This document shows positions 3,353 through 38,760 of a stretch of DNA of 64,000 nt, piece by piece. The DNA is taken from NCBI GenBank assembly GCA_004557245.1, contig SFEL01000006.1, positions 12,942 through 76,941 of the forward strand, in the 5' to 3' direction. The translations under genes were made by a program, and so were the position numbers. How positions within the stretch are numbered: the stretch's first letter is position 1; each line of letters opens with the position of its first letter. The notes under the pieces were generated by a model. The model saw only the letters and a list, made by a program, of their open reading frames with translations, did no database searches and had not been told where the DNA came from. Source of the DNA: Clostridiales bacterium. Its GTDB lineage: Bacteria; Bacillota; Clostridia; Christensenellales; CAG-138.

Positions 3353-3601
3353 ATAAATCTTAACTGTGAGAGTTTCTCACACTGCCCTTTCAAAAAACGA
3401 GTTTTACTAATATTTATTCATAGTATATACTGCAGACAACAGAGTTTCAAGGTGCTTAAATAACTGCGAGCATATAACTTATTTATTAAGTCCTAACGTA
3501 TTTAGGCAAATATTTAATATATCTATAGGAGATAATAAACATATAAGCTGGACTTATTGAAAACTCTGCTGAATAATAATCCAAAAAATGGAGGAAGCTT
3601 T

Positions 3602-5713
3602 ATGGAATTGTATATTGTACTGTGCGTTATTGTCCTTGCGGTAGTATATGTATTCTATAATTATTTCAAGATCAAGAGGATGGATGAGGGTACTGCCGAA
3701 ATGGCGGAGATGGCAGGAATAATCCGCAGCGGAGCAGTCGAATTCCTCAAGACGGAGTTCAGGACAATCGCAATAGTGATTCTGCTGGCGGCTGTCGTGT
3801 TTACGCTATTTATCGAAAAGACCAGCGGCATTACCTTCATAATGGGCGGCCTTATGAGCAGCACGGTATGCATACTGGGCATGCGCAGCGCCACCTATGC
3901 CAACGTCCGCACCGCCAATAAGTCCCGGGAGTCCCTCTCAATAGGTGAAACGGTAAAGGTAGCTCTCTGCGGCGGCAGCATATCCGGCCTCAGCGTACAG
4001 GCTTTCGGCATGCTGGGCATGGTGCTGGTGCTGATAATATGGGGTATCGACTTTGACGCAGTAGGCCACGGCCTCATTGCAAACCTCAAGTGCAATCCTT
4101 CCATAATGCGTATGTCCACTTATTCTCTGGGCTGCTCCATAGTTGCAATGTTCAACCGCGTAGCGGGAGGTAACTATACCAAGGCTGCGGACATCTCGGC
4201 AGACATTCTGGCAAAGATACGCCACGATATGCCTGAGGATGACAGCCGCGTTCCCAATACCATAGCGGATTTCATAGGCGATAACGTAAACGACATAGCA
4301 GGCAACTGCTCAGATCTTCTGGAGAGCTTCGTGGCCACTATGGCGGCTTCCATAATGATTGCCGTTACCATATTCAACAACAATCGGGCTATAGGAGAGG
4401 CTACCTTCAATGCCACCTGCGCGTTCCCGATACTGTTGGCTGGCTGTGGCCTGCTGGGCTGCGTGCTGGGTCTGGGTTATGCCTCCCTGCGCAAGATGGG
4501 CGACAATCCCTCCCATGAGCTTAACCTTGCTACCTATATTTCTTCCGGACTTACCATAGCGCTGGGCTTTGTAGCCTGCAAGGTGGTGTTCGGCAATGTT
4601 CCCCTTTACGATTCCTTTAGAATAGGATGGATATCTCCTTGGGTATCGGCGGTCCTGGGCACAATAAGCGGCGTAGCCATAGGCATGATAACCGAGTACT
4701 ACACCTCTACAGACTATAAGCCCACAAAGATGCTTGCGGACATGGCTACAGAAGGCGAGGCTTTCGTAATAACCAAGGGCGACGCCATAGGCTCCCGCTC
4801 CTGTCTGCTGCCCATACTGCTCATAGGCATATCGCTGTTCATCTCTGGAAAGATCTGCGGCACATACGGCATAGCCATATCCTCTCTGGGCATGCTGGCT
4901 TTTGTAGGTACTACCGTATCCATAGACGCGTTTGGCCCCATAGCGGACAATGCGGGCGGCCTTGCGGAATCCTGCCATCTTGACGCGGACGTGCGCAAGA
5001 TAACCGACAAGCTGGACGCCGTGGGCAACACCACCGCAGCTATAGGCAAGGGCTTTGCCATAGGCTCCGCCGCGTTCGCCACGGTTTCACTTATCGTTGC
5101 ATACGTTGGCAACTACACCGCAAACGGCGCTGAGCCGGTGCTGAACTTCGCTTCCTTTGTAGTAGTGGCGGGCGGCATAATCGGCGGTGCGCTGGTTGAG
5201 TACTTCTCTGCCCTTCTTACTGACAACACCATCGAGTCCGCCCGACTCATGGCTGACGAGGGCGACCGCATGCTCTCTGTTCCCGGCGTGCTGGAAGGCA
5301 CCGTAAAGCCGGATTACAACAAGATGATAAGGATGGCCGCACAGCAGGCCCTCAGAAAGATGCTGCTGCCCTCAGTGTTGTCCATGCTCATTCCCGCAGT
5401 AGGAGGATTCCTCTTCGGTGTTGAGTTCGTAGGCGGCATATTGGTAGGCGCTACCATAGTGGCCATACCCAGGGCAATATTTATGGGCAACTCCGGCGGT
5501 GCCTTTGATAACGCCAAAAAGTACATCGAGTCCGGAGCAATCGAGGGCCACGGCAAGGGCTCCGACGCCCACAAGGCCTCTGTCACCGGCGATACCGTAG
5601 GCGATACCCGCAAAGACGTAGTAGGCGTTGCGCTGGATATATTCATAAAGTCTATGTCCACCGTAGCCAATACCCTCGCAAGCGTATTCTCTACATTAAC
5701 TCTGTTCAGATAA
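3602..5713 (+). CDS. hppA: Membrane-bound ion-translocating pyrophosphatase (K+-dependent type signature)
   Basis: It is a multi-TM protein with GDNVNDIAG, DAFGPIADNAGG, GNTTAAIGKGFAIGSAA and GDTVGDTRKD motifs. The ATG at 3602 follows GGAGGA, and the ORF-track TTG start at 3557 lacks an RBS. Confidence 0.95.
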   Translation: MELYIVLCVIVLAVVYVFYNYFKIKRMDEGTAEMAEMAGIIRSGAVEFLKTEFRTIAIVILLAAVVFTLFIEKTSGITFIMGGLMSSTVCILGMRSATYANVRTANKSRESLSIGETVKVALCGGSISGLSVQAFGMLGMVLVLIIWGIDFDAVGHGLIANLKCNPSIMRMSTYSLGCSIVAMFNRVAGGNYTKAADISADILAKIRHDMPEDDSRVPNTIADFIGDNVNDIAGNCSDLLESFVATMAASIMIAVTIFNNNRAIGEATFNATCAFPILLAGCGLLGCVLGLGYASLRKMGDNPSHELNLATYISSGLTIALGFVACKVVFGNVPLYDSFRIGWISPWVSAVLGTISGVAIGMITEYYTSTDYKPTKMLADMATEGEAFVITKGDAIGSRSCLLPILLIGISLFISGKICGTYGIAISSLGMLAFVGTTVSIDAFGPIADNAGGLAESCHLDADVRKITDKLDAVGNTTAAIGKGFAIGSAAFATVSLIVAYVGNYTANGAEPVLNFASFVVVAGGIIGGALVEYFSALLTDNTIESARLMADEGDRMLSVPGVLEGTVKPDYNKMIRMAAQQALRKMLLPSVLSMLIPAVGGFLFGVEFVGGILVGATIVAIPRAIFMGNSGGAFDNAKKYIESGAIEGHGKGSDAHKASVTGDTVGDTRKDVVGVALDIFIKSMSTVANTLASVFSTLTLFR

Positions 5714-5719: not shown

Positions 5720-6031
5720 TAGACATAATTTTCAATTAGGCGGCCTTAAGGGTCTGATATCTGTGCTGAGCAGGTGTCAGGCCCTTTAGTTTTGCCTTGA
5801 TCCGGTGGTTGCTGTAGTAAACGAGGTAGTCGATGAGTTCAGCTTTGAAATGTTCAAGAGAATCGAGGTCCTGAATGTAAAGCGGTTCGGCTTTGAGTAT
5901 CCCGAAGAAGTTTTCCATTACAGCATTGTCCAAACAGATGATTGCATGCAATTTCTGCTTTCTGTTCCGGTGCCCATATCCGATTCTTCTGTTCCTTTTT
6001 CACGCTCATCACTTCCAAGTTGATTTTAACA
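5720..6031 (-). mobile_element. Internally deleted IS3-family insertion sequence remnant (OrfA N-terminus joined to OrfB C-terminus)
   Basis: The minus strand reads MSVKKEQKNRIWAPEQKAEI, then out of frame ..CLDNAVMENFFGILKAE..YYSNHRIKAKLKGLTPAQHR, which is an IS3 integrase C-terminal signature. There are weak terminal inverted repeats (TAAAATCAACTTGG / TAATTTTCAATTAGG). Boundaries are approximate. Confidence 0.6.
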
Positions 6032-6108: not shown

Positions 6109-6906
6109 TTATTTGCCAAAGAAGAAGGGCATTATCTCGTTTATTATGCGGCCGTTCCAGTAGCTGAAATCGTGCACGCCGTTGCCCTCGGTATAGGTGA
6201 AGTCTAAGCCAAGCGACTGGGCTTTTTTGCGCCATTCCTGGCTGAATGCATAAATGAAATCCTGTTTGCCGATAGTGTGATACATGGGAGGCACGTATTT
6301 GCCTGCGGCCTTGCGCGCCGCTGCCTTATCCAGAAGAGCCAGCATGTCGTTGTCGCCGTCCTTCATATCCGGCCAGTCGGACAGGGAAGTATGTATGGTG
6401 AATATGCTGCCGTTTTCAAAGGCATTTATGAATCCAGCCATATCCATACAGCCTGACAGGGAGGCTATTTTGCAGTATCTGTCGGGGTTCATGAGGCCGA
6501 TCTTGACCGCACCGAAACCGCCCATGGAGTAGCCCATTATGTAGCGGTCCTTGGCATCGGTGGAGGCGTGAAATGTAGCCTCTATCATGGCAGGCAGTTC
6601 TTCGGATATGTAGGTGTAGTATTTTGCTCCATAGGGTGTGTCATTGTAACAGCTCAGTGCTGCATCGGGCATTACTGCAATAAAGCCGTACTGGCAGCAG
6701 AGCTGTTCCATGTCGGCGCGCTGTATCCATTCAAAGCCGTCGCCGCCTGCGCCGTGCAGCATATATACTACCGGCCAGCGCTTTTCAGGGTCGTATTTGT
6801 CTTTGCGCTGTATCATTTCGCCAAGGGTAGGGGTAGGATAAGCAACCCAGACGCTGGTCTTCATTGCGAGACAACGGGAAGTGAAGTTGATGTTCATTAT
6901 GGCCAT
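6109..6906 (-). CDS. Esterase-family serine hydrolase (tributyrin esterase / S-formylglutathione hydrolase-like)
   Basis: It has an MLHGAGGDG oxyanion region and a GYSMGGFGA nucleophile elbow. A GGAGGG RBS lies upstream. Confidence 0.85.
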   Translation of the reverse strand: MAIMNINFTSRCLAMKTSVWVAYPTPTLGEMIQRKDKYDPEKRWPVVYMLHGAGGDGFEWIQRADMEQLCCQYGFIAVMPDAALSCYNDTPYGAKYYTYISEELPAMIEATFHASTDAKDRYIMGYSMGGFGAVKIGLMNPDRYCKIASLSGCMDMAGFINAFENGSIFTIHTSLSDWPDMKDGDNDMLALLDKAAARKAAGKYVPPMYHTIGKQDFIYAFSQEWRKKAQSLGLDFTYTEGNGVHDFSYWNGRIINEIMPFFFGK

Positions 6907-7092: not shown

Positions 7093-7121
7093 TTGAAAAA
7101 TTCGATGTAAGGTATTATATT
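7093..7121 (+). promoter_or_regulatory. Candidate sigma-A promoter for the aldehyde dehydrogenase gene
   Basis: It reads TTGAAA, a 17-nt spacer, then TATATT, in an AT-rich gap about 75 nt upstream of the GTG start. Confidence 0.4.
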
Positions 7122-7195: not shown

Positions 7196-8683
7196 GTGAA
7201 TCCGCTGGATTATGTAAGAAAAACGCCTTACGAGCTGTATATTGACGGCAAGTATGTACCCGCTGAAAAGGGCAAAGTGGTGGATGTTATCAACCCCGCT
7301 AACAATGAACCGTTTGCTCAGGTATATCGGGGCACTGTGGAGGACGCGGAGAAGGCGGTGCAGGCTGCCCGAAAGGCGTTTGACGAAGGCCCCTGGGGCC
7401 GCACTGCTGCCCGTGACCGCGCCAAGATACTTGCCAAGGCCGCACAGATAATGGAACGCCGGGGAGAGGAATTTGCAATACTCGAGTCGCTCGAATGCGG
7501 CTATCATTACGGGTCCGCACGCTACTATTGCGTGCCAATGGCAGTGGATTCCTTCAACCTGTTCGCCGGAAAGGCAAGGGATATTGAAGGCAAAGTCGTT
7601 CCTTCCGATTACGGCACGCTGAACTACGTTACATGGAACCCGGTTGGCGTAGTGGCCGAGATACTGCCCTGGAACGGGCCTTATCTCATGGGCTGCCAGA
7701 AAATAAACGCTATACTGGCCGCAGGCAATACCTGCATTATCAAGCCCCCATCCTGGGGAGTGCTGGCTCTGCTGCAGCTGGCTGGCGTATATGAAGAAGC
7801 CGGTCTGCCCGCAGGCGTATTCAATGTAGTTACCGGCTCAGGCTCAGAAGTGGGCGCGTATCTCACCAAGCATCCCATGGTAGACATGGTCGCCATGACA
7901 GGAGGAATTGAGACCGGCCGCGAGGTGATACACAACTCTGCCGAGCGCGTAAAGGATATTGCCCTTGAACTGGGCGGCAAGAGCCCTGCAATCTTCTTTG
8001 ACGACGTAAACGTAAAGGACGCCGCCAAGTGGGCCGTCTGGGGCTTCACCAACCATTCCGGTCAGGTATGCGTTTCAGGTACCCGTGTGCTTGTACAGCG
8101 CAGCATCTACGATGAGTTTGTAGAGGAAATGAAAAAGTTTATCGCTGAGAAGTATGTTGCGGGCGATACTTTCGATTTTAACTCCAACCTGGATCCCCTC
8201 ATTTCCAAGTCCCATGCCGCAAAGGTATGGAGCTATATAGAGAAGGGTAAGGAAGAGGGCGCGAGGCTGGTCTGCGGCGGCGAGCACTACACCGACCCTG
8301 TGCTTGCAAAGGGCAATTACGTTCCGGTGACTCTGTTTGCCGATGTAACTCCCGATATGACCATATATCAGGAAGAGATATTCGGGCCTGTGGGCTGTGT
8401 TACTCCCTTTGACACCGAGGAAGAAGCCATCGCTCTTGCAAACGGTACCTCCTACGGCCTTGCGGGCGCCGTATATACCAACGATCTCAAGCGCGGCATC
8501 CGCGTTGCCAACAGCATAAAGGGCGGGCAGATCTATGTTAACCACTACTTCAGCAAGGGCATGATAGAGTCTCCCGGCACTGGATGGAAAGAAAGCGGTC
8601 TGGGCGTTGCGGGTATGCAGAAGTACATGATTTCCAAAACTGTATTCGTGGAAACCATTGACGGAACCCTTCCTCCTGTGTGA
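7196..8683 (+). CDS. NAD(P)+-dependent aldehyde dehydrogenase
   Basis: It has the ALDH glutamate motif LELGGKSP and the catalytic cysteine region GQVCVSGTRV. A GTG start follows AGGAGGA. Confidence 0.9.
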   Translation: MNPLDYVRKTPYELYIDGKYVPAEKGKVVDVINPANNEPFAQVYRGTVEDAEKAVQAARKAFDEGPWGRTAARDRAKILAKAAQIMERRGEEFAILESLECGYHYGSARYYCVPMAVDSFNLFAGKARDIEGKVVPSDYGTLNYVTWNPVGVVAEILPWNGPYLMGCQKINAILAAGNTCIIKPPSWGVLALLQLAGVYEEAGLPAGVFNVVTGSGSEVGAYLTKHPMVDMVAMTGGIETGREVIHNSAERVKDIALELGGKSPAIFFDDVNVKDAAKWAVWGFTNHSGQVCVSGTRVLVQRSIYDEFVEEMKKFIAEKYVAGDTFDFNSNLDPLISKSHAAKVWSYIEKGKEEGARLVCGGEHYTDPVLAKGNYVPVTLFADVTPDMTIYQEEIFGPVGCVTPFDTEEEAIALANGTSYGLAGAVYTNDLKRGIRVANSIKGGQIYVNHYFSKGMIESPGTGWKESGLGVAGMQKYMISKTVFVETIDGTLPPV

Positions 8684-8726
8684 TACTGTTAATAATTATT
8701 AAAGTATCACTCAAGGGGTAAATATA

Positions 8727-9332
8727 ATGCCTAATAAAGAACAAGATTTTTCCAGGGAAAACGATAGTACGGTAGGCGCTAAGATACGTGCCCTGAGAAG
8801 AATCCGCGGCCTGTCGCTGCAGCAGATGTCACAGGAAACGGGAATGAGCTATTCATACCTTTCGGGTCTGGAGAATGGCAAGCATTCCGTGTCCATAACC
8901 AATCTGCAGCGCATCGCAAAGTATTTTGATGTCGACATGGTGTACTTCCTTATGCCCAGCGGCGCAGTGCCGAAGGTATTCCGTAAGGAAGAGCTCTTCA
9001 GAGGAAATAATGCCTTTGCCGACATAGCCTACCGGGTAATAACCCCCGAAAAGACCAGTAATCTGCAGGTAAGCTATGTCTACCTGCCCCCCGATGAACC
9101 CAGCGAGCGGCATATCCACAAGCACGGCAAGGGGCAGGAGATGCTGATTACTTTGGACGGCTGCGTCTGTGTCATGGTAGAGGAAGAACGGTACAGGATC
9201 GAGCAGGGCGACTGTATAGTATTCGATGCAAATATTGAGCATGTTATGTATACAGAAGAACAGCCGGCAACATTTGTGATAATATCCAGTCCGCCATACG
9301 GGCAAAACATTCTTCCAACTACACATGAATAA
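8727..9332 (+). CDS. XRE-family HTH plus cupin-domain transcriptional regulator (PuuR-like architecture)
   Basis: It has an N-terminal HTH (IRALRRIRGLSLQQMSQETGMSYSYLSGLENGK) and a C-terminal cupin (HKHGKGQEMLITLDG...GDCIVFDANIEH). Confidence 0.85.
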   Translation: MPNKEQDFSRENDSTVGAKIRALRRIRGLSLQQMSQETGMSYSYLSGLENGKHSVSITNLQRIAKYFDVDMVYFLMPSGAVPKVFRKEELFRGNNAFADIAYRVITPEKTSNLQVSYVYLPPDEPSERHIHKHGKGQEMLITLDGCVCVMVEEERYRIEQGDCIVFDANIEHVMYTEEQPATFVIISSPPYGQNILPTTHE

Positions 9333-9337
9333 GCTGA

Positions 9338-9375
9338 AAAGCGGGGGGCTGAAAGCTCTCCGCTTTATATTTTTT
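9338..9375 (+). terminator. Rho-independent terminator after the regulator gene
   Basis: The stem AAAGCGGGG..CTCCGCTTT is followed by ATATTTTTT. Confidence 0.6.
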
Positions 9376-9445
9376 GCATGGCTGCGATTTTTGAATAAAT
9401 CTTACAATATTTTTAACCAAGATAAGAAAGGACTCCTGATACAAA

Positions 9446-10777
9446 ATGAGTTTGAAGGCGGTACACTATATCAACCAGTTCTATGCCGGAATAGGTGGCG
9501 AAACCATGGCGGACACCGGCTTTGGCGTACTGGAAGAGAAAAAAGGGCCTGCTCTGGGCCTTGAGCAGCTTTGGAATGGAGAAATGACCATATCCAAGGT
9601 AGTATATTGCGGCGACAATTACGTAAACACTGATGAGAACTATGGTGAGGTAAAGGAAAAGCTGGCCAAGGTCATCCGAGAGGAAAAACCGGACGTATTT
9701 ATCGCGGGTCCCGCATTTAATGCCGGCCGCTACGGCGTTGCCTGCGCCAAGGTATGCGATTACGTTCGCAGCGAGCTTGGAGTACCCAGCGTTACCTGTA
9801 TGTGGCATGAGAACCCTGCCATAGACATGTACGTGGAAAACAACTATATCGTACCCAGCACAGAGACTGCTGTAGGTATGCGCAAGACTCTGCCTGCGCT
9901 TGCAAAGCTTGCCCTTAAGCTTGCCAGGAAGGAAAAGATAGGTACCGCCCACGCCGAGGGATACCTGCCTACCGGCCACCGCTATAATGAATATTCCGAT
10001 AAGTCCGGCGCAGAACGCGTTGTGGATATGCTCGTGGCGAGGCTGTATAACAAGAAGTTTGAGACAGAGGTGCCCCTCAGGAGCTTTGAGGTAATACCCC
10101 CTGCCGCAAAGATAAAGGACATAAGCAAGGCTACCATAGCCCTGTTTACCACTGGCGGTCTGGTCCCTGTGGGCAACCCGGATAAGATCAAGCAGGCGTT
10201 TGCCGTAAGCTTTGGTATTTATGATATGACCGGCCTCGACGCTCTTAAGAAGGGCGTGTATGAATCAATACACGGCGGATACGATACTACCGCCGCCAGC
10301 GCCGATCCTCATCGTCTGGTACCTCTTGATGCTCTTCTCGATTGCAAGAAGGAAGGCAAGATTGGAGATATCTACAAGTTCTTCGGTGCTACCTGCGGTG
10401 TTGGCACAAACATCGGCAGCAGCCAGGAGATGGGCAAGAAGTGGGCAAATATGCTTAAGGATGCCAAGGTGGATGCTTGTCTGCTGACCTCTACCTGAGG
10501 AACCTGCACTCGTTGCTGCGCAACGATATCAAAAGAGCTTGACAGAGCAGGCATACCTAATGTACACATAACTGCGTTTACCACCATAGCTAAGAGCGTT
10601 GGTGCGAACCGCATAGTATTTGGCGGCGAATTTACCGCTCCGGTGGGCAATCCCGATCTGCCCATAGACAGAGAAAAGGTTTACCGCCGCAAGATCATCG
10701 ACAAGGCGTTGGAAGTCCTGCAGATGGACATCACCGCACCCACGGTATTTACTGTGGACGAGAGCAAGGAGGACTAA
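9446..10777 (+). CDS. GrdB/GrdF/GrdH-type selenoprotein B (glycine/sarcosine/betaine reductase family), 443 residues including one selenocysteine
   Basis: The N-terminus HYINQFYAGIGGE is GrdB-like. The ORF-track stop at 10496-10498 is a UGA followed in frame by GTCTRCCATISKELDRAGIPNVHIT..., giving the UxxCxxC motif of selenoprotein B. The frame continues 93 codons to TAA at 10775-10777. The GrdE-like gene starts 3 nt later. Confidence 0.85.
10496..10498 (+). other. In-frame UGA read as selenocysteine
   Basis: The context is LLTST-U-GTCTRCC. The downstream frame is open and homologous in character to the GrdB C-terminus, and no other ORF accounts for 10499-10777. Confidence 0.8.
10510..10526 (+). 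promoter_or_regulatory. SECIS-like hairpin downstream of the UGA
   Basis: TCGTTGC-TGC-GCAACGA forms a 7-bp stem with a small G-containing loop. It starts 11 nt after the UGA, the usual spacing for a bacterial SECIS. Confidence 0.55.
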
Positions 10778-10780
10778 GCA

Positions 10781-12100
10781 ATGATAGATATGAAGCTTAC
10801 CCGTCAGTATTTTGACGTTAAGGATGTTTGCTTTGGCGATAAGTGCGCATTGGAAAACGGTGTGCTTACCGTAAACGAAGCCGAGCTTCAGGCGCTGACC
10901 GCCGACCTCTGCAAGGCTGTGAAGGGCTATCATCTCGAGATAACCAAGCCGGGTGAAAATGCACGCATCATACACGTTCTGGACACGATAGCCCCCATGG
11001 TAAAAATAGAGGGAGAGGGCGTACAGTACTCAGGATTTTTCAGCACCCCTTATACCGTAGGCCGCGGCGTCACCAACATGCTGTCCGGCTTTGCCGTAAT
11101 AGAGAGTGCGGCCCTTCCGTGGGATGAGTCCAACGCCTCCAGCGGCCTGCTGTATCCCCGCGACGCCATAATCGAGCTCAGCGGTTTCTATGCGGGCTAT
11201 ACGCCTTTTTCCAAGACAAACAATCTGGTCATCATATACGACCTGAATGAGGGCAAATCCTCTATCGAGTACGATAACGATATTCGCCTTATTGCCATCA
11301 GAATATCCAATTATCTGGCGGAGCTCACACGCAGCATGACTCCCGACAGGACGGAGGAGTTCTCCACTGAGGAAGAGCATCCGGAGTTGCCCGGGGTAGT
11401 GATGGTATGGCAGTGCCAGAACCAGGGACCGTATGCGGATACAATGCTCTATGGAATGCCCATAGACGATATGGTTCCCACCGTGCTTCATCCCAACGAG
11501 ATGCTGGATGGCTGCGTGGTAAGCGGCAACTATGTGTGGCCTGCCTTCAAGGTACCCACCTATCTGCACGTTAACCACCCGGTGCTGTTGGAACTGTACA
11601 GGCGCCACGGTAAGGATATCAACTTCAAGGGCGTAATATTCTGCCGCAGCCACAATCCCAGCACATGGCATAAGCAGCGCTGTGCAAGCCACGTGGTAAA
11701 GCTTGCTCAGATGCTGGATGCAAAAGGCCTGGTAATGGTATGGGAAGGCGGCGGCAACGCCTGCACTGACGGCATGCTTACAATACAGACCGCTGAGCGC
11801 CACGGTATCCGCACCGCCGGCATCACCTTCGAATTCGGCGGCAAGGACGGCACAGAGGGCATACTGCTGGTTGACGATGTACCAGAAGCTACAGCTATGT
11901 GCAGCGGAGGTTCCATTGAGAAGACGGTACACCTTTCTGCTGTGGACAGGGCAGTAGGCGGAGATACCTTCAGGCTCAATAAGGAATCCGGCGGCTTCTT
12001 CCCTCCCGCCAAAGGCGAACTCACACTTGAGCAGACTACCCACCTTTATCTCGGCGGCAACCAGTGTGCATACAGCAAGATATACGGGGCGGCCTATTAA
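10781..12100 (+). CDS. GrdE/GrdG/GrdI-type subunit of a glycine-reductase-family protein B
   Basis: Conserved blocks are TPFSKTNN, PTVLHPNEMLDGCVVSGN and LELYRRHGKDINFKGVI. An AAGGAGGA RBS lies 7 nt upstream, and the gene is tightly coupled to the selenoprotein gene. Confidence 0.85.
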   Translation: MIDMKLTRQYFDVKDVCFGDKCALENGVLTVNEAELQALTADLCKAVKGYHLEITKPGENARIIHVLDTIAPMVKIEGEGVQYSGFFSTPYTVGRGVTNMLSGFAVIESAALPWDESNASSGLLYPRDAIIELSGFYAGYTPFSKTNNLVIIYDLNEGKSSIEYDNDIRLIAIRISNYLAELTRSMTPDRTEEFSTEEEHPELPGVVMVWQCQNQGPYADTMLYGMPIDDMVPTVLHPNEMLDGCVVSGNYVWPAFKVPTYLHVNHPVLLELYRRHGKDINFKGVIFCRSHNPSTWHKQRCASHVVKLAQMLDAKGLVMVWEGGGNACTDGMLTIQTAERHGIRTAGITFEFGGKDGTEGILLVDDVPEATAMCSGGSIEKTVHLSAVDRAVGGDTFRLNKESGGFFPPAKGELTLEQTTHLYLGGNQCAYSKIYGAAY

Positions 12101-12141
12101 AAAAAGATTTTAAAAATACTAATACGAAAGGAAAAAGAATT

Positions 12142-12924
12142 ATGAAGCGCAGAATGAATAATTTCTTTAAAAAGGATGGCAAGTCCTTCGTGTTGGCTAT
12201 GGATCACGCGGCAATGATGCCTTCTCCCGATTTGAAGGATCCGGGACATGTTATCCGCGAGGCTGTGGCCGGTGGTGCTGACGGATTTCTGACTACCTAT
12301 GGTATTATTAAGGCCTTCCAGAATGATTTCGGCAATGCCGGTATTATAATGCGTGCGGACGGAGGAATTTCTGCACTCCGCAAACCCATGAACCCCCTCA
12401 GCCTGCTGTACACCCCCGAGGATGCGGTGCGCGTAGGCGCCGATGCCATGCTGTGCATGGGTTATCCGGGCTCTACCGACAATGAGCACACCCTGGAGTA
12501 CCTTGCTAACCTCTGCGCCGAGGCTGAAAAGCTCAACATTCCGGTAGGCGCCGAGATGCTGCCTTACGGCTTTGAAAAGCACGAGGGCATTGATACCCGT
12601 TCTGTTGAGAATATGAGCTTTGCCTGCAGGCAGGGCGCAGAGCTGGGCGCTGATTTTATCAAGGCCGAGTTCGTTGGGGGCGAACGTTTCCGCGAGGTCG
12701 TTGACGGCTGCTACGCGCCCATACTGGTGCTGGGCGGCGGCAAGGCCAAGAGCGAGGAGGAGATATTCGCCAACATTCGCGGCGCTCTGGACGCTGGCGC
12801 AAAGGGTATTATAATGGGCCGAAATATCTACCGTCACGAGAATATAGCCGCCGTTTGCGCGGCCATTGCCGCGATAGTGCATGACGATGCCACCGTTGAC
12901 GAGGCCATGAAGATGCTTAAATAA
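12142..12924 (+). CDS. Class I (Schiff-base, DhnA/FbaB/LsrF-type) aldolase family protein
   Basis: It reads KSFVLAMDHAAMM, then ADFIKAEF (candidate catalytic Lys region), VLGGGK and GIIMGRNI, typical of the COG1830 family. I place the start at the ATG at 12142 rather than the ORF-track 12064. Confidence 0.8.
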   Translation: MKRRMNNFFKKDGKSFVLAMDHAAMMPSPDLKDPGHVIREAVAGGADGFLTTYGIIKAFQNDFGNAGIIMRADGGISALRKPMNPLSLLYTPEDAVRVGADAMLCMGYPGSTDNEHTLEYLANLCAEAEKLNIPVGAEMLPYGFEKHEGIDTRSVENMSFACRQGAELGADFIKAEFVGGERFREVVDGCYAPILVLGGGKAKSEEEIFANIRGALDAGAKGIIMGRNIYRHENIAAVCAAIAAIVHDDATVDEAMKMLK

Positions 12925-12939
12925 CCGGAGGTAAAAGAT

Positions 12940-13986
12940 ATGTCTATTCAAATTAAGACTATTGCCGTAACCGGCGAAAAACAGACCGAGATAATGAATC
13001 TGACCACCCCGGATCTTCGCAACGGCGAAGCATTGATAAAGGTACATGCCGTAGCGCTCTGCACCCTTGAGCAGCGCATATTCAGGGGTGAAGTAAAGAT
13101 GCCTCTGCCATGCACCGGTGGCCACGAGGTATCAGGCGAGATAGTTGCTCTGGGCGATGGCGTGAACAAGAAAATGTGGGCGCCAGGAGACCGCGTTGCC
13201 GTACGTCTGCTTTACAACTGCGGCGAGTGCTATTACTGCCGTACCGGACATGCTAATCTCTGCGAAAGGGCGCAGAAAAAGCCCGTACGCGAGGGACTGC
13301 TTATAGGACCCGGCGGCCTTTGCGATTACGTTATAGTAAATACCGGTTATCTCTTTAAGATACCCGACACTCTGAGTTACGAAGAAGCCAGCCTTACCGA
13401 GCCTCTTGCATGTGTGGTGCATAGCGTCACCAAGGCCAACATTCAGCTGGGTGAAGACGTGGTCGTAATAGGCGGCGGCATAATGGGTCAGTATCACGTA
13501 ATGCTGGCAAAGCGCAGGGGTGCAAGGGTCATAATGAGCGAGGTAGACGAGAACCGCCGCGCTCTGGCACAGAAGCTGGGAGCCGACATTACTTTCAACC
13601 CCATGGAGAAGGACCCTGTTGAGTACGTAAAGAGCCTTACCGAGGGCCGTGGCGCAGACGTGGTGTTCAACACCACCGCCATACCTTCCGTGGTACCTCA
13701 GGCTATCGCCATGACAGGCAAGGCCGGCCGCATGATACAGTACAGTTCCATGCATCCCGATGCCCCGGCACCGGTAAGCCCCCAGATGCTGCATGGCAAT
13801 GAGCCAATACTCACCGGCTCCATCAGCCCCGACGTACACGACTTTTTTACCGCTAACCGTCTGCTTTCCGGCGGCATAATAGACTGCAAGCCGCTTATTG
13901 CAAAGAAGTTCCCCTTCGAGCAGGCACAGCAGGCCTTTGAGGCGGCGATTGTGCCCGGCACCTTCAGGGTAATAATAACCGACTGA
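12940..13986 (+). CDS. Zinc-dependent alcohol dehydrogenase (threonine/sorbitol dehydrogenase-like MDR family)
   Basis: It has a GHEVSGEIVALG catalytic zinc motif, a CGECYYCRTGHANLC structural zinc motif and a GGGIMG Rossmann motif. Confidence 0.9.
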   Translation: MSIQIKTIAVTGEKQTEIMNLTTPDLRNGEALIKVHAVALCTLEQRIFRGEVKMPLPCTGGHEVSGEIVALGDGVNKKMWAPGDRVAVRLLYNCGECYYCRTGHANLCERAQKKPVREGLLIGPGGLCDYVIVNTGYLFKIPDTLSYEEASLTEPLACVVHSVTKANIQLGEDVVVIGGGIMGQYHVMLAKRRGARVIMSEVDENRRALAQKLGADITFNPMEKDPVEYVKSLTEGRGADVVFNTTAIPSVVPQAIAMTGKAGRMIQYSSMHPDAPAPVSPQMLHGNEPILTGSISPDVHDFFTANRLLSGGIIDCKPLIAKKFPFEQAQQAFEAAIVPGTFRVIITD

Positions 13987-14000
13987 TATGGCCCGGACTT

Positions 14001-14031
14001 TTCCGTACAGGGTCGTTGGCCCTGTACGGAA
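14001..14031 (+). terminator. Strong hairpin ending the reductase-aldolase-ADH transcription unit (no clear U-tract)
   Basis: TTCCGTACAGGG-TCGTTGG-CCCTGTACGGAA lies directly after the ADH stop. Confidence 0.5.
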
Positions 14032-14137
14032 ATACTGTAAATAGAATTTACTTAAAATCTGCTGGCGCAAAGCATCAACTGGGGAGAACCGAGAGAATAA
14101 TGCTGATGTAACCACATTAGTTATTATAAGATTGATA

Positions 14138-14166
14138 TTGACAAAAACGATGTTAAATATTAAACT
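14138..14166 (+). promoter_or_regulatory. Candidate sigma-A promoter for the APC permease
   Basis: It reads TTGACA, a 17-nt spacer, then TAAACT, in an AT-rich gap. Confidence 0.45.
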
Positions 14167-14276
14167 ATATCATAAATGAAATGTTCGATTAAGTGAATTA
14201 CCAGTAAAAATGAATTAGGTTTTGGGATGCTCAGGTCCCGAAAAATCAATAAAAACACATTATTTAGGAGGATTCT

Positions 14277-15599
14277 ATGGAAAACAAAGATAGTGGTAAG
14301 CTTGGCCTTGTAGCTTGCATTGCTATACTTACCGGCGGCTGCATCGGCAGCGCGATTTTCTCACTTTCCGGCATGACTATGTACTATGCCGGTCCCGCAG
14401 CTATAATTACATGGATAGTTGCAGCTATAATACTTGGTTGCTATGGCGTTCAGGTGGCCGAGCTGTCCGTAAGATACCCCCATTCCGGTGGCGTTTACGT
14501 ATTTCCTGCTAAGTCCCTGAATAAATTCTGGGGCTTCGCTGCAGCCTGGGGCTACGTTATTTCCAACTTTATCGCTGTAGCCTTCTCCGCTATTTACGTA
14601 GCCACTTATCTGGGTGTTGGCTTCGAGGCGCTTGCCGGTCTGCAGATACCCCTCGCGCTGGCCTCCATACTGTTCTGTGTAATACTTAACATGATGAAGG
14701 TTACCGATGCCGGCAAGTTCAACAACGTACTGGTCGGCCTGCTCATCATTACAATGCTGCTGTTCAGCGGTATTGCCCTGTCTCACGGCAACTTTAACTT
14801 TGATAACTTCAGCAACTTCTTCGATGGCGGCATGGGCAAGACCGGTTGGATACAGGCTATCCCCAATGCCATGGTAGCTTACGGCTCCGTGGTTGCAATA
14901 GCCTTCATGGTGGGCCAGGTAAAGGATCCCAACCGTACCGTTCCCAAGTCCATGGCTATCGCCCTGATAATCGTAGTTTCCCTGTACCTTCTGATGATCG
15001 TTGGAACCTTGGGTCACATTACTACCCAGTTCCTGGTAGATAATCCCGGCATGCGCTTCATACCTATGTTCGCCGCTGCATGGACTTCAATGACCAACGT
15101 GCCCTGGCTCTCTAAGCTGATCTCTGTTTCCGCCTTCATCGCCCTGATCACCACCATGCTGGTTGTTCAGAACCTGAATGCCCTGACCATTCGGGCCATG
15201 GCTGAGGATGGCGCTCTGCCAAAGGTATTGGCAAAGTCTAACAAGAACGGCGCACCCTCTGCAGGCATCATCTTGGCTGCTGTTGTAGCTGGTATTCTCA
15301 GCTGCCAGCCCTCCTGGACTGAGCTGCTGGTAAACCTCGGCTCCATAGCCGCTGCCGTTACCGTAGTTATAGTTTGCTATTCCCTGATAGCATCCCGCAA
15401 GCAGATGCCCAGCATTGAGGGCAAATACAAGGCTCCCGGCGGCAATGCTCTGAGCTGGGCTACCATAATCGTGATCGTAGCGAGCTACATACCCGCCATA
15501 TTCAACGGCGGCGCGCAGATGTGGATATTCACTGCCATCATCTACATCGTAGGTATACTGATTTACTTCCTTTACTCCAAGAAACATCTCGCTGAATAA
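14277..15599 (+). CDS. APC-superfamily amino acid/amine permease
   Basis: It is a protein of about 12 TM segments with an APC-type N-terminus (GCIGSAIFSLSG). An AGGAGGA RBS lies upstream. Confidence 0.9.
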   Translation: MENKDSGKLGLVACIAILTGGCIGSAIFSLSGMTMYYAGPAAIITWIVAAIILGCYGVQVAELSVRYPHSGGVYVFPAKSLNKFWGFAAAWGYVISNFIAVAFSAIYVATYLGVGFEALAGLQIPLALASILFCVILNMMKVTDAGKFNNVLVGLLIITMLLFSGIALSHGNFNFDNFSNFFDGGMGKTGWIQAIPNAMVAYGSVVAIAFMVGQVKDPNRTVPKSMAIALIIVVSLYLLMIVGTLGHITTQFLVDNPGMRFIPMFAAAWTSMTNVPWLSKLISVSAFIALITTMLVVQNLNALTIRAMAEDGALPKVLAKSNKNGAPSAGIILAAVVAGILSCQPSWTELLVNLGSIAAAVTVVIVCYSLIASRKQMPSIEGKYKAPGGNALSWATIIVIVASYIPAIFNGGAQMWIFTAIIYIVGILIYFLYSKKHLAE

Positions 15600-15687
15600 G
15601 CCGATATAGTTGTTTGAATTGAGGCGTAAAGTCCTGCGGCAGTGCATCGCTGCCGCAGGTATGTCTCGAGACCGGAGGAAACTTACA

Positions 15688-16590
15688 ATGAAGCATGTAT
15701 TGGATTTTTGCGGTGGTACGAAGGACGGTACCTGTGTAGCTTTTGGACATTTTGACGGTATCCACCTTGGCCACAGGGCAGTTATAGAAAAGGTCTGTGC
15801 CCATGAGGGGCTTGTACCTGTGATAGTAAGCGCAGACGAGACATTCAAGCCCGTTATATATACCGAGCGGGAAAAGGAAGAACTCCTTAAAGAAACCGGC
15901 GTGGAAATAATGGTTTCGGTAAACGCCCGGGATTATGATTCCATGACCGCAGAAGAGCTTTGCAGTGCCGTTGCCGGAAAGCTCAACGCAAAGGTGGTAG
16001 TAGCCGGAGAGAATATCTGCTTTGGCTCCGATAATAAGGGTATCGCAGAGCTTAAGGCCCTCGGTGCAAAGTACGGCTTTGCTGTTGAGTCTGTTCCCGT
16101 CGTTTATCACAATGGCGAAGAAGTATCCACAGCAGCCGTAATGAAGGCAATTGAGGATAAGGATTTTAATAAGATGTCCGAACTCCTTGGCCATGTATAT
16201 ATTATGATGGGAAGGGTCGTCCACGGTAAGGCGGCCGGGCGCAAGCACGGAATGCCCACGGCTAACCTGGGCGTAGCGGCTAATAAGCTGTTTCCTCCTC
16301 ACGGCGTATATGGCACGCTTTCCATAATAGATGGCAGATATTACAGGGGCATGACCAACATAGGTCTGCGTCCCTCAGATGACGATATACCCATTGCCAC
16401 GATAGAGACATTTATACTGAACTTTGACCAAGATATATACGACAAGGATGTACTGCTTCAGGTTTATGCCTATATCCGCGGAGTGAAGAAATTCTCCGGT
16501 GGTCTGGATGAAGTCCGCAAGCAGATCGACAAGGATATTCAGGACGTCAAGTCTTATATGGACGAAGTAGTACGCAAGCTTGGCATTTGA
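15688..16590 (+). CDS. ribF: Bifunctional riboflavin kinase / FMN adenylyltransferase
   Basis: It has GHFDGIHLGHRAVI, and a riboflavin kinase C-terminus (GRVVHGKAAGRKHGMPTANL, TFILNFDQDIYDK). The ATG at 15688 follows GGAGGA. Confidence 0.9.
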   Translation: MKHVLDFCGGTKDGTCVAFGHFDGIHLGHRAVIEKVCAHEGLVPVIVSADETFKPVIYTEREKEELLKETGVEIMVSVNARDYDSMTAEELCSAVAGKLNAKVVVAGENICFGSDNKGIAELKALGAKYGFAVESVPVVYHNGEEVSTAAVMKAIEDKDFNKMSELLGHVYIMMGRVVHGKAAGRKHGMPTANLGVAANKLFPPHGVYGTLSIIDGRYYRGMTNIGLRPSDDDIPIATIETFILNFDQDIYDKDVLLQVYAYIRGVKKFSGGLDEVRKQIDKDIQDVKSYMDEVVRKLGI

Positions 16591-16661: not shown

Positions 16662-16771
16662 TGTGCAAACAGAAGATAGTGCCGCTGCTCTGAAGGACAG
16701 CGGATGCATACTTGACAAGCAGGGGGCATTTTAGGAAAATATGCTTAAGATTCGACATTGAGAGGGTTCTT

Positions 16772-17620
16772 ATGGATATATATGTCAGGGATGGTTCTAT
16801 CATAGTGTCCGGGGTCAGTTGCTTTGACCTTGCCCGTTCCTGCGACTGCGGGCAGGCGTTTCGCTGGAAGAATACGGGAAACGGCTGGTTTGGCGTGGCA
16901 GGCGGCAGGGGAGCTACGGTAAGGCAGACGGGAGAAACTCTGATTATAACCCCCGGCAAGGATAAAGATGTCGGCTTCTGGCTCAATTACTTTGACTTAT
17001 ACAGAAACTATCAGGCTATAGAGGACGAGGTGAGATGTGACGCTACCCTTGGCAAATGCCTGGACTACGCCAGCGGCATACACATATTCAATCAGGACCC
17101 ATTTGAAACGCTGATAAGCTTTATCATATCGGCAAACAACAACATAAAGCGCATAACCGGTATAGTGGACAGGCTTTGTATCCTGGCAGGAGAAAAGCAC
17201 GAAGGAACTACAGAATACTATTCCTTCCCGGCGCCTGAGGCCATAGCGGAGCTGACCGTTGAACAGCTCACCGCCATAGGCTCCGGCTACCGGGCGCCAT
17301 ATATCAAAGGCAGCGCCAGAATGATAGCCGACGGGTACGAACTGGAAACGCTGAGAAACGTGCCGACGGCGGCGGCAAGAAAAGAACTGCTGAGATTCCC
17401 GGGCGTGGGGCCAAAGGTTGCGGACTGCGTGCTGCTGTTCTCGCTGGGCCATGCGGACGCATTTCCGTTGGACGTATGGATGAAGCGCGCCATGCGGCTC
17501 ATGTACTTCCAAGGCGCAGAACCGGGGAAAAAGGCCATGGAGGATCAGATAGCCGCCCTTGGCCCAAACAGCGGCATATTGCAACAATACATATTCCAAT
17601 ACGCAAGAGAGAATATGTAG
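16772..17620 (+). CDS. ogg: 8-oxoguanine DNA glycosylase (HhH-GPD family, clostridial Ogg type)
   Basis: It has CDCGQAFRW near the N-terminus and the HhH-GPD region LLRFPGVGPKVADCVLLFSLGHADAFPLDVW. Confidence 0.8.
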   Translation: MDIYVRDGSIIVSGVSCFDLARSCDCGQAFRWKNTGNGWFGVAGGRGATVRQTGETLIITPGKDKDVGFWLNYFDLYRNYQAIEDEVRCDATLGKCLDYASGIHIFNQDPFETLISFIISANNNIKRITGIVDRLCILAGEKHEGTTEYYSFPAPEAIAELTVEQLTAIGSGYRAPYIKGSARMIADGYELETLRNVPTAAARKELLRFPGVGPKVADCVLLFSLGHADAFPLDVWMKRAMRLMYFQGAEPGKKAMEDQIAALGPNSGILQQYIFQYARENM

Positions 17621-18742
17621 CTATTTGGAATAGGCGTGACGGAACATCTCCTCTACCTTTTTTTGAGTGTCGTCCGGGATAATTTGGGCAACTTCGCCGC
17701 ACTGTGCTACCCTCGCCGTAAGGCGGGGGAGCTTTTTTAAAAAAGCGTTTTTATCCCGTTCCAGCTCGCAGAGCTTCAACGGCAGCCCCAGCATGTCCGC
17801 ATATTCCTCAATGAGCGCAGCAAGAGCCTCGGGAGTATCCTTCAGACCCAACTCCGACGCTATGGCGGCGTAGCCCTCGGAGTATTGGCCGGTTGAACGC
17901 CGTATTATGGCAGGAAGGTACACGGCGCAAAGCGTCCCGAAGGATACACAGCCAAACAGCCCCATAGATCCGTGAACCATTGCAGAGCAAAGGCCGGGGG
18001 AGGCGTTGTAGTGGGCTATGCCGCTGAGTATCTGGGCGTTGAGCAGCGGCTCTGATGGAAATGGCAGGCAGGAAAACGCAATGGTGCTGCTTATTATGGT
18101 ATGCATGGCCTGCATTGCGAAGGGGCGGCTGAAAAAACTGCCTTCGGGAGAGACGGCCGCTTCCACGGAAAGCGCCAGTGCGGACAATACTGCTTCGCCG
18201 GTATGGGTGTGGGGTAAGGCGTTGAGCAGCAGCGGGTCGATTATGGCGGCGTGGGGCATGAGACCGGGGCAGTATATAACCTGCTCAAGGCATTCCCGGG
18301 GATTCCATAGCGCCGCGTATCCGGTGGCCTCGCCGCCGTTTGAACCGAGGGTAGGAACGGCTATAAGACGTGTGCGCCCCAGTTTCATTCTGGGTATATC
18401 GGACCTGACAAGATCGTCCGGAGTAAGGTCGGGACGCTCGTAGAATATCCGCATGAGCTTTGCGCAGTCCATGGCGGCATGGCCTCCTATGGCGATTATC
18501 CAGCCCGGCTTGAACTCCATAAGCGCCTTTGCCCCTTCCAGTACCGTCGGGCCGTCGACCGGGCCTTCGGGCACGCTGAATACCCGTATGTGCATGCCGG
18601 TGCGCCTGGCCTGCTTCTGGGCTATCCTGCACGCGGCCTCGCAGTCATGCACCAGCAGCATTCGGTCGCCCCGGAGGCCGGATATATGCTCCAATGTGCC
18701 GTCGCCGTAAAGTATCCTTATGGGTATTCTAAACTCCGCCAT
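17621..18742 (-). CDS. Iron-containing (group III) alcohol dehydrogenase family protein, divergent
   Basis: Fe-ADH fold signatures are present (IAIGGHAAMDCAK, VPTLGSNGGEATG). Its stop abuts the ogg stop, forming a TAGCTA palindrome. Confidence 0.8.
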   Translation of the reverse strand: MAEFRIPIRILYGDGTLEHISGLRGDRMLLVHDCEAACRIAQKQARRTGMHIRVFSVPEGPVDGPTVLEGAKALMEFKPGWIIAIGGHAAMDCAKLMRIFYERPDLTPDDLVRSDIPRMKLGRTRLIAVPTLGSNGGEATGYAALWNPRECLEQVIYCPGLMPHAAIIDPLLLNALPHTHTGEAVLSALALSVEAAVSPEGSFFSRPFAMQAMHTIISSTIAFSCLPFPSEPLLNAQILSGIAHYNASPGLCSAMVHGSMGLFGCVSFGTLCAVYLPAIIRRSTGQYSEGYAAIASELGLKDTPEALAALIEEYADMLGLPLKLCELERDKNAFLKKLPRLTARVAQCGEVAQIIPDDTQKKVEEMFRHAYSK

Positions 18743-18899: not shown

Positions 18900-19544
18900 A
18901 TGATGAAACTCAATAAGTACATCGACCATACCCTTCTCAAGCCCGACGCCACTACCGAACAGATAAAGAAAATATGTGACGAGGCGAAGAAGTACGACTT
19001 CGCCAGCGTATGCGTAAATTCCTGCCATGCTGAGCTGGTAGCAAGGGAGCTTAAGGACAGCGGCGTTTCCACCTGCTGCGTAGTAGGCTTTCCTCTAGGC
19101 GCAATGCTCACCGAGGCAAAGGCATATGAAGCCAGGCTGGCGGTAGAAAAGGGCGCAAACGAGATAGACATGGTGATCAACATAGGCGCCGCTAAGGAAG
19201 GCGACTGGAAACTCGTAGAGGACGATATAAAGGCCGTAGTTGACGCATGCCATCCCAAGGCGCTGCTGAAGGTCATAATCGAGACCTGCCTGCTCACCGA
19301 TGACGAAAAGCGCGAGGCCTGCCGCTGCGCCGTAAGGGCGGGAGCCGATTATGTCAAGACCAGCACCGGCTTTTCCACCGCAGGCGCAAACGTACACGAC
19401 GTTGCACTCATGCGCGAGACTGTAGGCCCGGATGTGGGCGTAAAGGCCTCTGGCGGCGTGCGCACCCACGAGGACGCTGATAAAATGATAAAGGCGGGGG
19501 CGACAAGGCTCGGCACCAGCTCCGGCGTAAAGCTCATGGCATAA
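18900..19544 (+). CDS. deoC: Deoxyribose-phosphate aldolase
   Basis: It reads [30 protein letters not shown] and GVKASGGVR. Confidence 0.95.
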
Positions 19545-20041: not shown

Positions 20042-20060
20042 ATCAGGGGGGTAAGTTACG

Positions 20061-37694: not shown

Positions 37695-37702
37695 GAGGAC
37701 GC

Positions 37703-38758: not shown

Positions 38759-38760
38759 AC

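Follow-up and report, generated by a model that had tools for sequence, protein, structure and literature searches.

The 64,000-nucleotide (nt) stretch of contig SFEL01000006.1 analysed here, called the window throughout, carries a gene cluster built around a selenoprotein of the glycine reductase GrdB type and its partner of the GrdE/G/I family. We refer to these two proteins as GrdB' and GrdE'. Alongside them the cluster encodes an aldehyde dehydrogenase (ALDH), a class I aldolase, a zinc-dependent alcohol dehydrogenase (Zn-ADH), a permease, a regulator and RibF, the enzyme that converts riboflavin to flavin mononucleotide (FMN) and beyond. The features are listed below, with likenesses to genes of the flavin-induced neighbourhood (fin) of Clostridium scindens, to which we return, given in brackets.

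6109-6906, minus strand: esterase, divergent, upstream of the ALDH gene (PF00756)
7196-8683, plus strand: NAD(P)-dependent ALDH (finG-like; PF00171, 518 bits)
8727-9332, plus strand: XRE-family helix-turn-helix (HTH) and cupin regulator (HTH_3 and Cupin_2 in Pfam)
9338-9366, plus strand: terminator-like hairpin with a 13 bp stem and a T-run, between the XRE-cupin gene and grdB'
9446-10777, plus strand: GrdB' selenoprotein, 443 amino acids (finH-like; PF07355, 457 bits)
10499-10536, plus strand: selenocysteine insertion sequence (SECIS) of the SECIS_4 family, directly 3' of the UGA (Rfam RF01990)
10781-12100, plus strand: GrdE', GrdE/G/I family, 439 amino acids (finI-like; PF09338, 436 bits)
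12142-12924, plus strand: DhnA-type class I aldolase (finC-like; PF01791)
12940-13986, plus strand: Zn-dependent polyol-type dehydrogenase, the Zn-ADH (finD-like; ADH_N and ADH_zinc_N)
14277-15599, plus strand: APC-family permease (finA/F-like; AA_permease_2)
15610-16590, plus strand: RibF homologue, bifunctional riboflavin kinase/FMN adenylyltransferase (finB-like; Flavokinase 112 bits, FAD_syn 76 bits)

The seven genes listed in the initial annotation are all real and correctly placed, according to the open reading frame (ORF) list, Pfam and NCBIfam. Its gene list was incomplete, however, in that it overlooked RibF and with it a clue to a flavin substrate. The full order is ALDH-XRE-B'-E'-aldolase-ADH-permease-RibF, and the gaps in the run from grdB' through grdE' and the aldolase to Zn-ADH are 3, 41 and 15 nt. 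The spacing between the GrdB' stop codon (10775-10777) and the GrdE' start (10781), together with an AAGGAGG just 5' of GrdE', indicates tight coupling of these two genes. A promoter-like site at 7093-7121 lies 5' of ALDH, and the strong terminator-like hairpin at 9338-9366 appears to separate the ALDH-XRE unit from the grdB' operon; it could also be a regulated attenuator. Within 80 nt 5' of grdB' there is no clear sigma-70 promoter and no Rfam match. The permease had been credited with its own promoter, and a promoter-like TTGACA-17-TAAACT does occur at 14138-14166, ahead of the permease and of RibF, which starts 10 bp past the permease end.

The ALDH finds its top NCBIfam matches among amino-aldehyde and betaine-aldehyde dehydrogenases, every one under its cut-off, and the models nearest to Zn-ADH (threonine, inosose and galactitol-1-phosphate dehydrogenases) are each sub-cut-off as well. 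The best PDB match of the aldolase is MJ0400 (142 bits), whose segment ADIVKTSY, presumably the one with the Schiff-base lysine, aligns with ADFIKAEF of the query. RibF has intact GxFDGxHxGH and PTAN motifs that align with the Streptococcus pneumoniae flavin adenine dinucleotide (FAD) synthetase 3op1; it scores 113 bits against the best RibF in the PDB and a median of 218 bits against RibF of other cluster types. The regulator had been compared with PuuR, and its HTH-plus-cupin architecture fits that comparison, but it is not PuuR, scoring 44 bits against a cut-off of 211.

The selenoprotein pair

That the GrdB-type gene encodes a selenoprotein, as first annotated, is well supported. Its frame reads through a TGA at 10496-10498, the selenocysteine (Sec) codon 351, within the motif LLTST-U-GTCTRCC. 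The SECIS_4 element begins one base after this TGA, scores 38.6 bits (gathering score 38), and is the sole Rfam match in the whole window. All 67 aligned relatives have TGA at the Sec position, and SECIS_4 recurs at the same place in six of seven scanned loci (L048, L007, L041, L024, L010 and L016, numbered within the locus set described below). GrdB' also retains UxxCxxC (STUGTCTRC) after Sec.

Family models place the pair inside the selenoprotein B superfamily and outside its named branches. GrdB' passes the broad subfamily model TIGR01918 with 506.5 bits (cut-off 65), and this score, that of PF07355 and the PF09338 partner together mark superfamily membership. The narrower models are another matter: GrdB' scores 462.7 bits against a cut-off of 602 for the GrdB equivalog (TIGR01917), 473.9 against 800 for GrdF (NF040794) and 438.9 against 775 for GrdH (NF040795), and GrdE' scores 272.7 against 780 for GrdG (NF040793) and 115 against 675 for FarE (NF053623). 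Among 1.84 billion 50%-identity representatives, the full-length proteins nearest GrdE' are 76% and 57% identical, the next falls to 44% and others reach at most 41%; the corresponding bit scores are 575, 567, 350 and then 308 or less. Judged by the NCBIfam cut-offs and this drop from 57% to 44%, rather than by a labelled tree, the two sequences form a discrete clade apart from GrdB/E, GrdF/G and GrdH/I, which bears out an early suspicion that they might stand alone. In a collection of 5.8 billion proteins, 737 match GrdE' at E ≤ 1e-10, and the best 120 of these are at least 65% identical. A PDB sequence search with GrdE' matched no solved structure.

The clade also differs at the site of pyruvoyl formation. 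In GrdE of C. difficile, mass spectrometry identified C242 as the cleavage and pyruvoyl site (PMC9908766). We aligned GrdE' with 126 family representatives and the other clade members (14 with the window protein). The canonical SGN-C cysteine is replaced by Tyr251 (SGNYVWP) in GrdE' and in the 13 other aligned members of its clade; among the representatives that have the cysteine it lies at residues 239-246, with one outlier (P0146) at 251. GrdE' also lacks the other member of the CxxxC pair, the second cysteine. Both processing cysteines are likewise absent from GrdI, which acts on betaine, and FarE, which acts on fluoroacetate, and these substrates are unable to form a Schiff base (PMC10838667). 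Because GrdE' has lost the pyruvoyl-forming cysteine, glycine or sarcosine is disfavoured as its substrate. Free amines that need a Schiff base would conflict with the loss, and the sequence speaks for a leaving group able to depart with no activation as an imine.

Six residues ahead of the lost cysteine position lies Cys245 (DGCVVSGNY, at about nt 11513-11515), which is invariant in the clade and specific to it; Ala occupies the position in 114 of 131 aligned family sequences. Cys245 might act as a catalytic thiol or provide another site for processing. Its use as a pyruvoyl precursor, with an amine substrate, was considered and dropped: the position is mostly Ala in the family, and the true SGN-C site is Tyr here.

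Conservation and links to glycine reductase genes

With one genome scanned for each GTDB species, 66 loci were obtained, and their neighbouring genes were counted by tblastn and ORF clustering. The loci span Lachnospiraceae, Oscillospiraceae, Christensenellaceae, Clostridiaceae, Lutisporaceae, Tissierellales and Peptococcaceae, and further ones come from Treponema putidum (78% identity), other spirochaetes and one Cloacimonadota metagenome-assembled genome (MAG). The selenoprotein-first order, noted at the outset as unlike that of canonical operons, is a constant of the clade: wherever both genes occur (64 of 64 loci), B' lies directly 5' of E', with a median gap of 10 nt. The aldolase-ADH-ALDH-permease neighbourhood is likewise no local accident and is conserved in dozens of species. 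ALDH stands beside the Grd-like pair in 53 of the 66 loci and an APC permease is found in 45. RibF lies within the cluster in 35, in several gene orders, and occurs together with aldolase and Zn-ADH in 33. An XRE-cupin regulator adjoins the ALDH/Grd core in 25 loci, a SorC-type regulator occurs in 26 and an iron-type alcohol dehydrogenase (Fe-ADH) in 17. NCBIfam typing of the Fe-ADHs and permeases gave sub-threshold, non-discriminating matches only.

Loci L008-L010 and L012-L017, with GrdE' identities of 76-96%, repeat the gene order of the window, and carriers of this order include Faecalicatena contorta ET51 and Lachnospiraceae bacterium 62-26. A homologue of the window's esterase (70-84% identity) lies upstream of ALDH in four of these loci (L008, L009, L013 and L015), and the gene possibly belongs with the cluster. 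Other arrangements include SorC-aldolase-ADH-permease-RibF-ALDH-B'-E' in L007 and ALDH-B'-E'-FeADH-ZnADH-permease-RibF-aldolase in L066. Pfam scans of the window found no SorC-type gene, and most loci with the window's order have none either (L017 has one). Two groups of spirochaetes deserve separate description. L016 (6545-15547), from the cultivable oral spirochaete Treponema putidum ATCC 700334, has the cluster in full, arranged as in the window; its proteins share 54-78% identity with their window counterparts, and it is a clear case of lateral transfer from Clostridia. L070 and L071 (1-21300), from Spirochaetales MAGs, hold the most divergent clade members (50% identity), as a pair without the ALDH or RibF module. 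Upstream, that pair has genes for caprolactamase/hydantoinase-like A and B subunits and one resembling ornithine carbamoyltransferase; on its downstream side come grdA, trxA, what seems to be a GrdC-GrdD fusion (~855 amino acids), an aldehyde:ferredoxin-oxidoreductase-like gene and xanthine-dehydrogenase-like subunits. This pair probably acts on a different substrate.

The initial annotation described the GrdB-type gene pair as an orphan, separated from the rest of a glycine reductase. Inside the window this holds: Pfam scans covering every ORF of 90 or more amino acids found no grdA, grdC/D, trxA/B or selA/B, and when GrdA, GrdC, GrdD, TrxA, TrxB, SelA and SelB of related loci were used as tblastn queries against the window, none had a hit better than E = 0.1. 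These absences concern the window only, and the label does not extend to the relatives, since grdA and/or grdC/D lie within 10 kb of the pair in 16 of the 66 loci. In most of these, trxB-trxA-grdA-grdC-grdD sit directly 3' of E', often followed by selA-selB. RibF is present in 6 of the 16 as well, and the whole aldolase module in L041, L063 and L008; L041 and L063 carry the aldolase/RibF module and the grd genes all in one stretch, to which L041 adds a tRNA-Sec. The position of the pair beside grdA-grdCD-trx-sel genes in a quarter of the species implies formation of acetyl phosphate.

Close relatives of the window pair are among the grd-linked loci, namely L011 (GrdE' 82% identical) and L008 (96%). 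In L008, whose DNA is only ~81% identical to that of the window, a bona fide grdA (..ECFV-U-TAAG..) and grdC-grdD lie ~3.6 kb upstream of ALDH. Measured from the esterase, the three genes lie ~2.6 kb upstream, beyond three other ORFs, and at the corresponding place the window has an H+-pyrophosphatase gene (3557-5713) and an IS3-type transposase fragment. This fragment, a C-terminal remnant (..NAVMENFFGILKAE..RIKAKLKGLTPAQHR..) at 5736-5951 on the minus strand, lies between the H+-pyrophosphatase and esterase genes. Its presence where L008 has grdA-grdC-grdD suggests that a rearrangement split the cluster from its GrdA/CD genes. Such separation has precedents: grdRIH of C. sporogenes is a stand-alone protein B cluster that uses the common GrdA/GrdCD (PMC4517662), and several protein B clusters of Cloacibacillus share GrdA/GrdCD (PMC10838667). 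By analogy, genes in other parts of the genome most likely supply the window pair with GrdA, GrdCD and thioredoxin.

A proposed route for riboflavin side-chain removal

The cluster was initially put forward as an undescribed pathway, a claim overtaken by the publication of the same gene set in 2026 as the fin neighbourhood. C. scindens converts riboflavin to lumichrome anaerobically, and high riboflavin induces one single neighbourhood, finA-K (Quiles Perez et al., J Bacteriol, July 2026, PMC13492142). Here finB encodes RibF, finC a class I aldolase, finD a Zn-ADH, finE a sugar-binding (SorC-type) regulator, finG an ALDH, finHI the Grd homologues and finA/F permeases (PMC13492142). Faecalicatena fissicatena, which lacks finGHI, stops at hydroxyethylflavin, and C. 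scindens, which has these genes, makes lumichrome; the authors proposed that finBCD free a triose and that finHI then take off a two-carbon unit (PMC13492142). About a dozen carriers were reported, all Lachnospiraceae, with Muricomes intestini named among those of the long type, and the paper is silent on selenocysteine, SECIS, GrdA/CD, thioredoxin and acetyl phosphate (PMC13492142).

The window cluster is probably a rearranged long-type fin neighbourhood, serving to remove the ribityl chain of riboflavin without oxygen by selenium-dependent, pyruvoyl-independent C-N cleavage; we hold this reading with moderate confidence. RibF is the main functional clue, since its presence in the cluster indicates a flavin substrate. 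The gene set as a whole (a kinase that acts specifically on the terminal hydroxyl of an N-linked ribityl chain, a polyol-type ADH, an aldolase of the type that releases dihydroxyacetone phosphate (DHAP), an ALDH resembling those for amino aldehydes, and a reductase for X-CH2-COOH compounds) points to a riboflavin route. It also speaks for this reading that RibF stays embedded, with intact catalytic motifs, despite differing gene order, that GrdB' keeps Sec, SECIS and UxxCxxC, and that GrdE' resembles GrdI and FarE in lacking the processing cysteines.

The route would begin with phosphorylation of riboflavin to FMN by RibF. Zn-ADH would then oxidise the 4'-hydroxyl of the ribityl phosphate chain to give 4'-keto-FMN, which the class I aldolase would cut between C2' and C3' into DHAP and 10-formylmethylflavin. 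ALDH would turn the latter into 10-carboxymethylflavin, an N-substituted glycine. GrdB' and GrdE' would act as the substrate-specific protein B: the selenolate would attack the carboxymethyl carbon and lumichrome would leave, without a pyruvoyl Schiff base, as in the betaine and fluoroacetate reductases. The carboxymethyl group would finally pass to selenoprotein A (GrdA) and on to GrdC/D, yielding acetyl phosphate, with electrons from thioredoxin and thioredoxin reductase. We infer the order and chemistry of these steps, the need for GrdA/CD and the transfer of function to a rearranged cluster. More tentatively, and with somewhat less than even confidence, the pair may be a Sec-dependent, pyruvoyl-independent carboxymethylflavin reductase that dealkylates N10 and hands the two-carbon unit to GrdA/GrdCD for acetyl phosphate formation. 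Of the two substrate schemes first drawn from the neighbouring genes, it is the one in which an N-substituted hydroxylated compound is oxidised and split and the N-substituted glycine reductively cleaved that would fit best.

Several observations weigh against the riboflavin route. The fin evidence itself consists of transcript induction and product analysis, and its authors considered overflow or damage control (PMC13492142). The sequence comparison with fin was made through the Muricomes intestini locus L048, so that the likeness to C. scindens is one of gene content, and identity between the accessory proteins of the window and of the Muricomes/Dorea type is only 36-53%. Pfam scans of the window did not find the SorC regulator finE, and Rfam found no FMN riboswitch in the window or in 7 relative loci. 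APC permeases are unusual flavin carriers, a whole grd-sel operon for a vitamin-level substrate is surprising, and the proposed pathway leaves the role of Cys245 unexplained. About half of the clade loci, moreover, consist of the ALDH/Grd core, with or without Fe-ADH and permease, and lack RibF, aldolase and Zn-ADH; some of these adjoin xanthine-dehydrogenase-like and amidohydrolase genes. Such core-only loci, an example being that of the Oscillospiraceae genome AP025583, could have a different or broader substrate range. Alternatively, the version with Fe-ADH, ALDH, B'E' and permease could scavenge hydroxyethylflavin or formylmethylflavin from bacteria with the short fin form. A literature search on GrdB with aldolase clusters returned nothing relevant.

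The missing pyruvoyl cysteines, which recall GrdI, would serve equally well if the pair were protein B for some other N- or X-carboxymethyl compound that forms no Schiff base, with RibF and the aldolase feeding in another aldehyde or RibF simply boosting flavin supply. We regard this as unlikely. The compound might be a quaternary or tertiary amine acid made by ADH and ALDH, in the manner of choline and betaine, or an adduct of the carboxymethyl-lysine type. GbsB and GbsA of Bacillus subtilis convert choline to betaine by just such an ADH and ALDH. The ALDH of the window matches betaine-aldehyde (474 bits) and aminobutyraldehyde dehydrogenases (445 bits) best, the Fe-ADHs of core-only loci match GbsB-type choline dehydrogenase, EutG and lactaldehyde reductase at a similar low level, amines and amino acids are the usual cargo of APC permeases, and the RibF module is missing from half of the loci. 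A betaine-like acid, the other substrate scheme of the initial annotation, nevertheless conflicts with the score of GrdB' against the GrdH model (439 bits, cut-off 775). Nor would this reading account for the 33 of 66 loci in which the pair is accompanied by a DHAP-type aldolase, a bona fide RibF and a polyol-type ADH, or for the induction by riboflavin of the homologous C. scindens cluster as the sole locus.

Quite improbable, in our judgement, is a divergent but ordinary protein B of glycine or sarcosine reductase, with ALDH making glycine from aminoacetaldehyde. The aldehyde would derive from ethanolamine through Fe-ADH, or from a phosphorylated amino-pentitol through the kinase, ADH and aldolase. 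GrdB' does retain the STUG/CxxC motif, and several genomes show no protein B besides this pair within a complete trxBA-grdA-CD-selAB operon, in some cases next to xanthine-dehydrogenase-like and amidohydrolase genes typical of purine-to-glycine fermentation. Yet the C242 equivalent is Tyr in every aligned clade member, the second cysteine is absent, scores fall far under the GrdB, GrdF and GrdG cut-offs, and the gene order is opposite to the canonical one. A literature search found no work linking glycine reductase to aminoacetaldehyde, and we know of no natural free 1-amino-1-deoxypentitol substrate.

The cluster might instead deal with flavins in excess or in reduced form, as an overflow or damage-control system that yields no energy and in which the Grd-like pair works without GrdA/GrdCD; this seems about as improbable as an ordinary protein B. 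The fin authors raised this alternative, with redox relief and export through the permeases (PMC13492142). C. scindens, a riboflavin auxotroph, still destroys about half of the riboflavin supplied, and its growth is not enhanced by ribose, ribitol or lumichrome (PMC13492142); there is also no grdA/CD nearby in the window or the Lachnospiraceae loci. Growth stimulation that persists to at least 90 uM riboflavin (PMC13492142) fits a substrate or electron acceptor instead, and the physical joining of the clade to grdA-grdCD-trx-sel operons elsewhere makes little sense unless the carboxymethyl group yields acetyl phosphate. Two further routes, from sulfoacetaldehyde and from the S-adenosylmethionine by-products methylthio- or homocysteinyl-ribose, were dropped because they leave RibF and riboflavin induction unexplained.

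The conversion of riboflavin to hydroxyethylflavin, formylmethylflavin and lumichrome by gut microbes is decades-old knowledge, and the fin neighbourhood supplied a candidate locus for the enzymes behind it. The fin gene set, its induction by riboflavin and the formation of lumichrome are already on record, for a system that is biochemically unproven (PMC13492142). Added here, from sequence analysis, are the assignment of FinH-type proteins as selenoproteins with SECIS elements, the lack of pyruvoyl cysteines in FinI-type proteins, the linkage to grdA-grdCD-trx-sel genes and the occurrence in at least 66 species. If the fin-type reading is true, the C-N cleaving step is carried out by a selenoenzyme and should depend on selenium without a pyruvoyl group, with acetyl phosphate probably delivered through GrdA/GrdCD. 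If the pair is indeed a carboxymethylflavin reductase of the more tentative kind described above, the side chain of vitamin B2 would be an ATP-yielding, Stickland-type substrate, the first derived from a cofactor for the glycine reductase machinery. The system would also be far wider than reported, reaching from Clostridia to Treponema, other spirochaetes and a Cloacimonadota MAG. Riboflavin catabolites bind MR1 and dampen the activation of MAIT (mucosal-associated invariant T) cells (PMC12650265), and the genes that make such catabolites thus matter for vitamin competition in the gut and for host immunity.

Other features of the window are recorded here for completeness. Past the cluster lie an OGG-type DNA glycosylase gene (16712-17620), a divergent Fe-ADH-family gene (17621-18742, minus strand; 24-29% identical to the Fe-ADH family of the 17 other loci) and a second aldolase, of the DeoC family (18900-19544, plus strand). 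Flavin-related genes encode an FMN_bind-domain protein (24899-25429, minus strand) and an ApbE flavin transferase (25779-26768), and the S component of an energy-coupling factor (ECF) transporter (41032-41718) adjoins a type III pantothenate kinase (41742-42509). Genes like spoIIAA-spoIIAB-sigF (19694-21258) and spoVAC-spoVAD-spoVAEB (37239-39117) mark the host as a spore-forming member of Bacillota. The genes for an N6/N4 DNA methylase and, after it, an AAA_21/AAA_15 ATPase (51084-53025) may form a restriction-modification or defence module. The sequence cluster of the window's GrdE' has 708 members in public metagenomes, which points to a common uncultured species.

Comparison with known systems

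The closest counterpart is the long form of fin, as found in C. scindens, Muricomes intestini and Dorea (PMC13492142), whose enzyme set is the same as that of the window: RibF, class I aldolase, Zn-ADH, ALDH, the Grd-like pair and one or more APC-type permeases. The Muricomes intestini locus (L048) reads SorC, aldolase, Zn-ADH, permease, RibF, ALDH, GrdB', GrdE', and its ALDH, GrdB' and GrdE' are 63%, 65% and 63% identical to those of the window, within the same discrete clade. Both clusters are divided into several transcription units, and the Lachnospiraceae fin loci, like the window, have no adjacent grdA/CD. Gene by gene, the window supplies finB through its RibF domains and intact motifs, finC and finD through an aldolase 42-47% and a Zn-ADH 36-49% identical to those of other cluster types, including the Muricomes/Dorea type, and also finG and finHI; finE has no counterpart, an XRE-cupin regulator standing in place of SorC. 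The order differs too, aldolase-ADH-SorC-permease-RibF-ALDH-(permease)-B'-E' in fin against ALDH-XRE-B'-E'-aldolase-ADH-permease-RibF here, with one permease rather than two and a conserved upstream esterase as a feature of the window. The operational rule of the fin paper calls for finBCDE orthologues (PMC13492142), under which the window cluster would probably go uncounted.

Betaine reductase GrdH/GrdI, known from Eubacterium acidaminophilum and C. sporogenes, offers another parallel. It too combines a Sec-containing GrdB-family subunit with a partner that has no pyruvoyl cysteines, and GrdE', in which both cysteines are absent, would be an unprocessed partner of the GrdI kind (PMC10838667). 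Its leaving group cannot form a Schiff base, and it can stand alone and borrow GrdA/GrdCD, as in grdRIH (PMC4517662). The window pair differs in falling short of the GrdH model, in its opposite gene order and in its surroundings, where RibF, aldolase, ADH and ALDH take the place of a betaine transporter. FarB/FarE of Cloacibacillus porcorum (PMC10838667) sets a precedent for divergence of a Grd protein B homologue to an X-CH2-COOH substrate that is not an amino acid. FarE is also without the processing cysteines and the system uses a shared GrdA, but FarB lacks the CxxC after Sec, whereas GrdB' retains UxxCxxC.

Canonical GrdB/GrdE, as in C. sticklandii and C. difficile, shares with the window pair the two-subunit build, Sec in STUG-CxxC and a SECIS of the same Rfam family, and is associated, like the clade, with trxBA-grdA-grdCD in many genomes. 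Canonical GrdE has C242 where GrdE' has Tyr. Canonical E precedes B (grdE-grdA-grdB, grdEB), an order that rests partly on the naming in PMC4517662 and partly on general knowledge, and in the window B' precedes E'. The window cluster, unlike canonical GrdB/GrdE, has ALDH, ADH, aldolase and RibF as dedicated partners.

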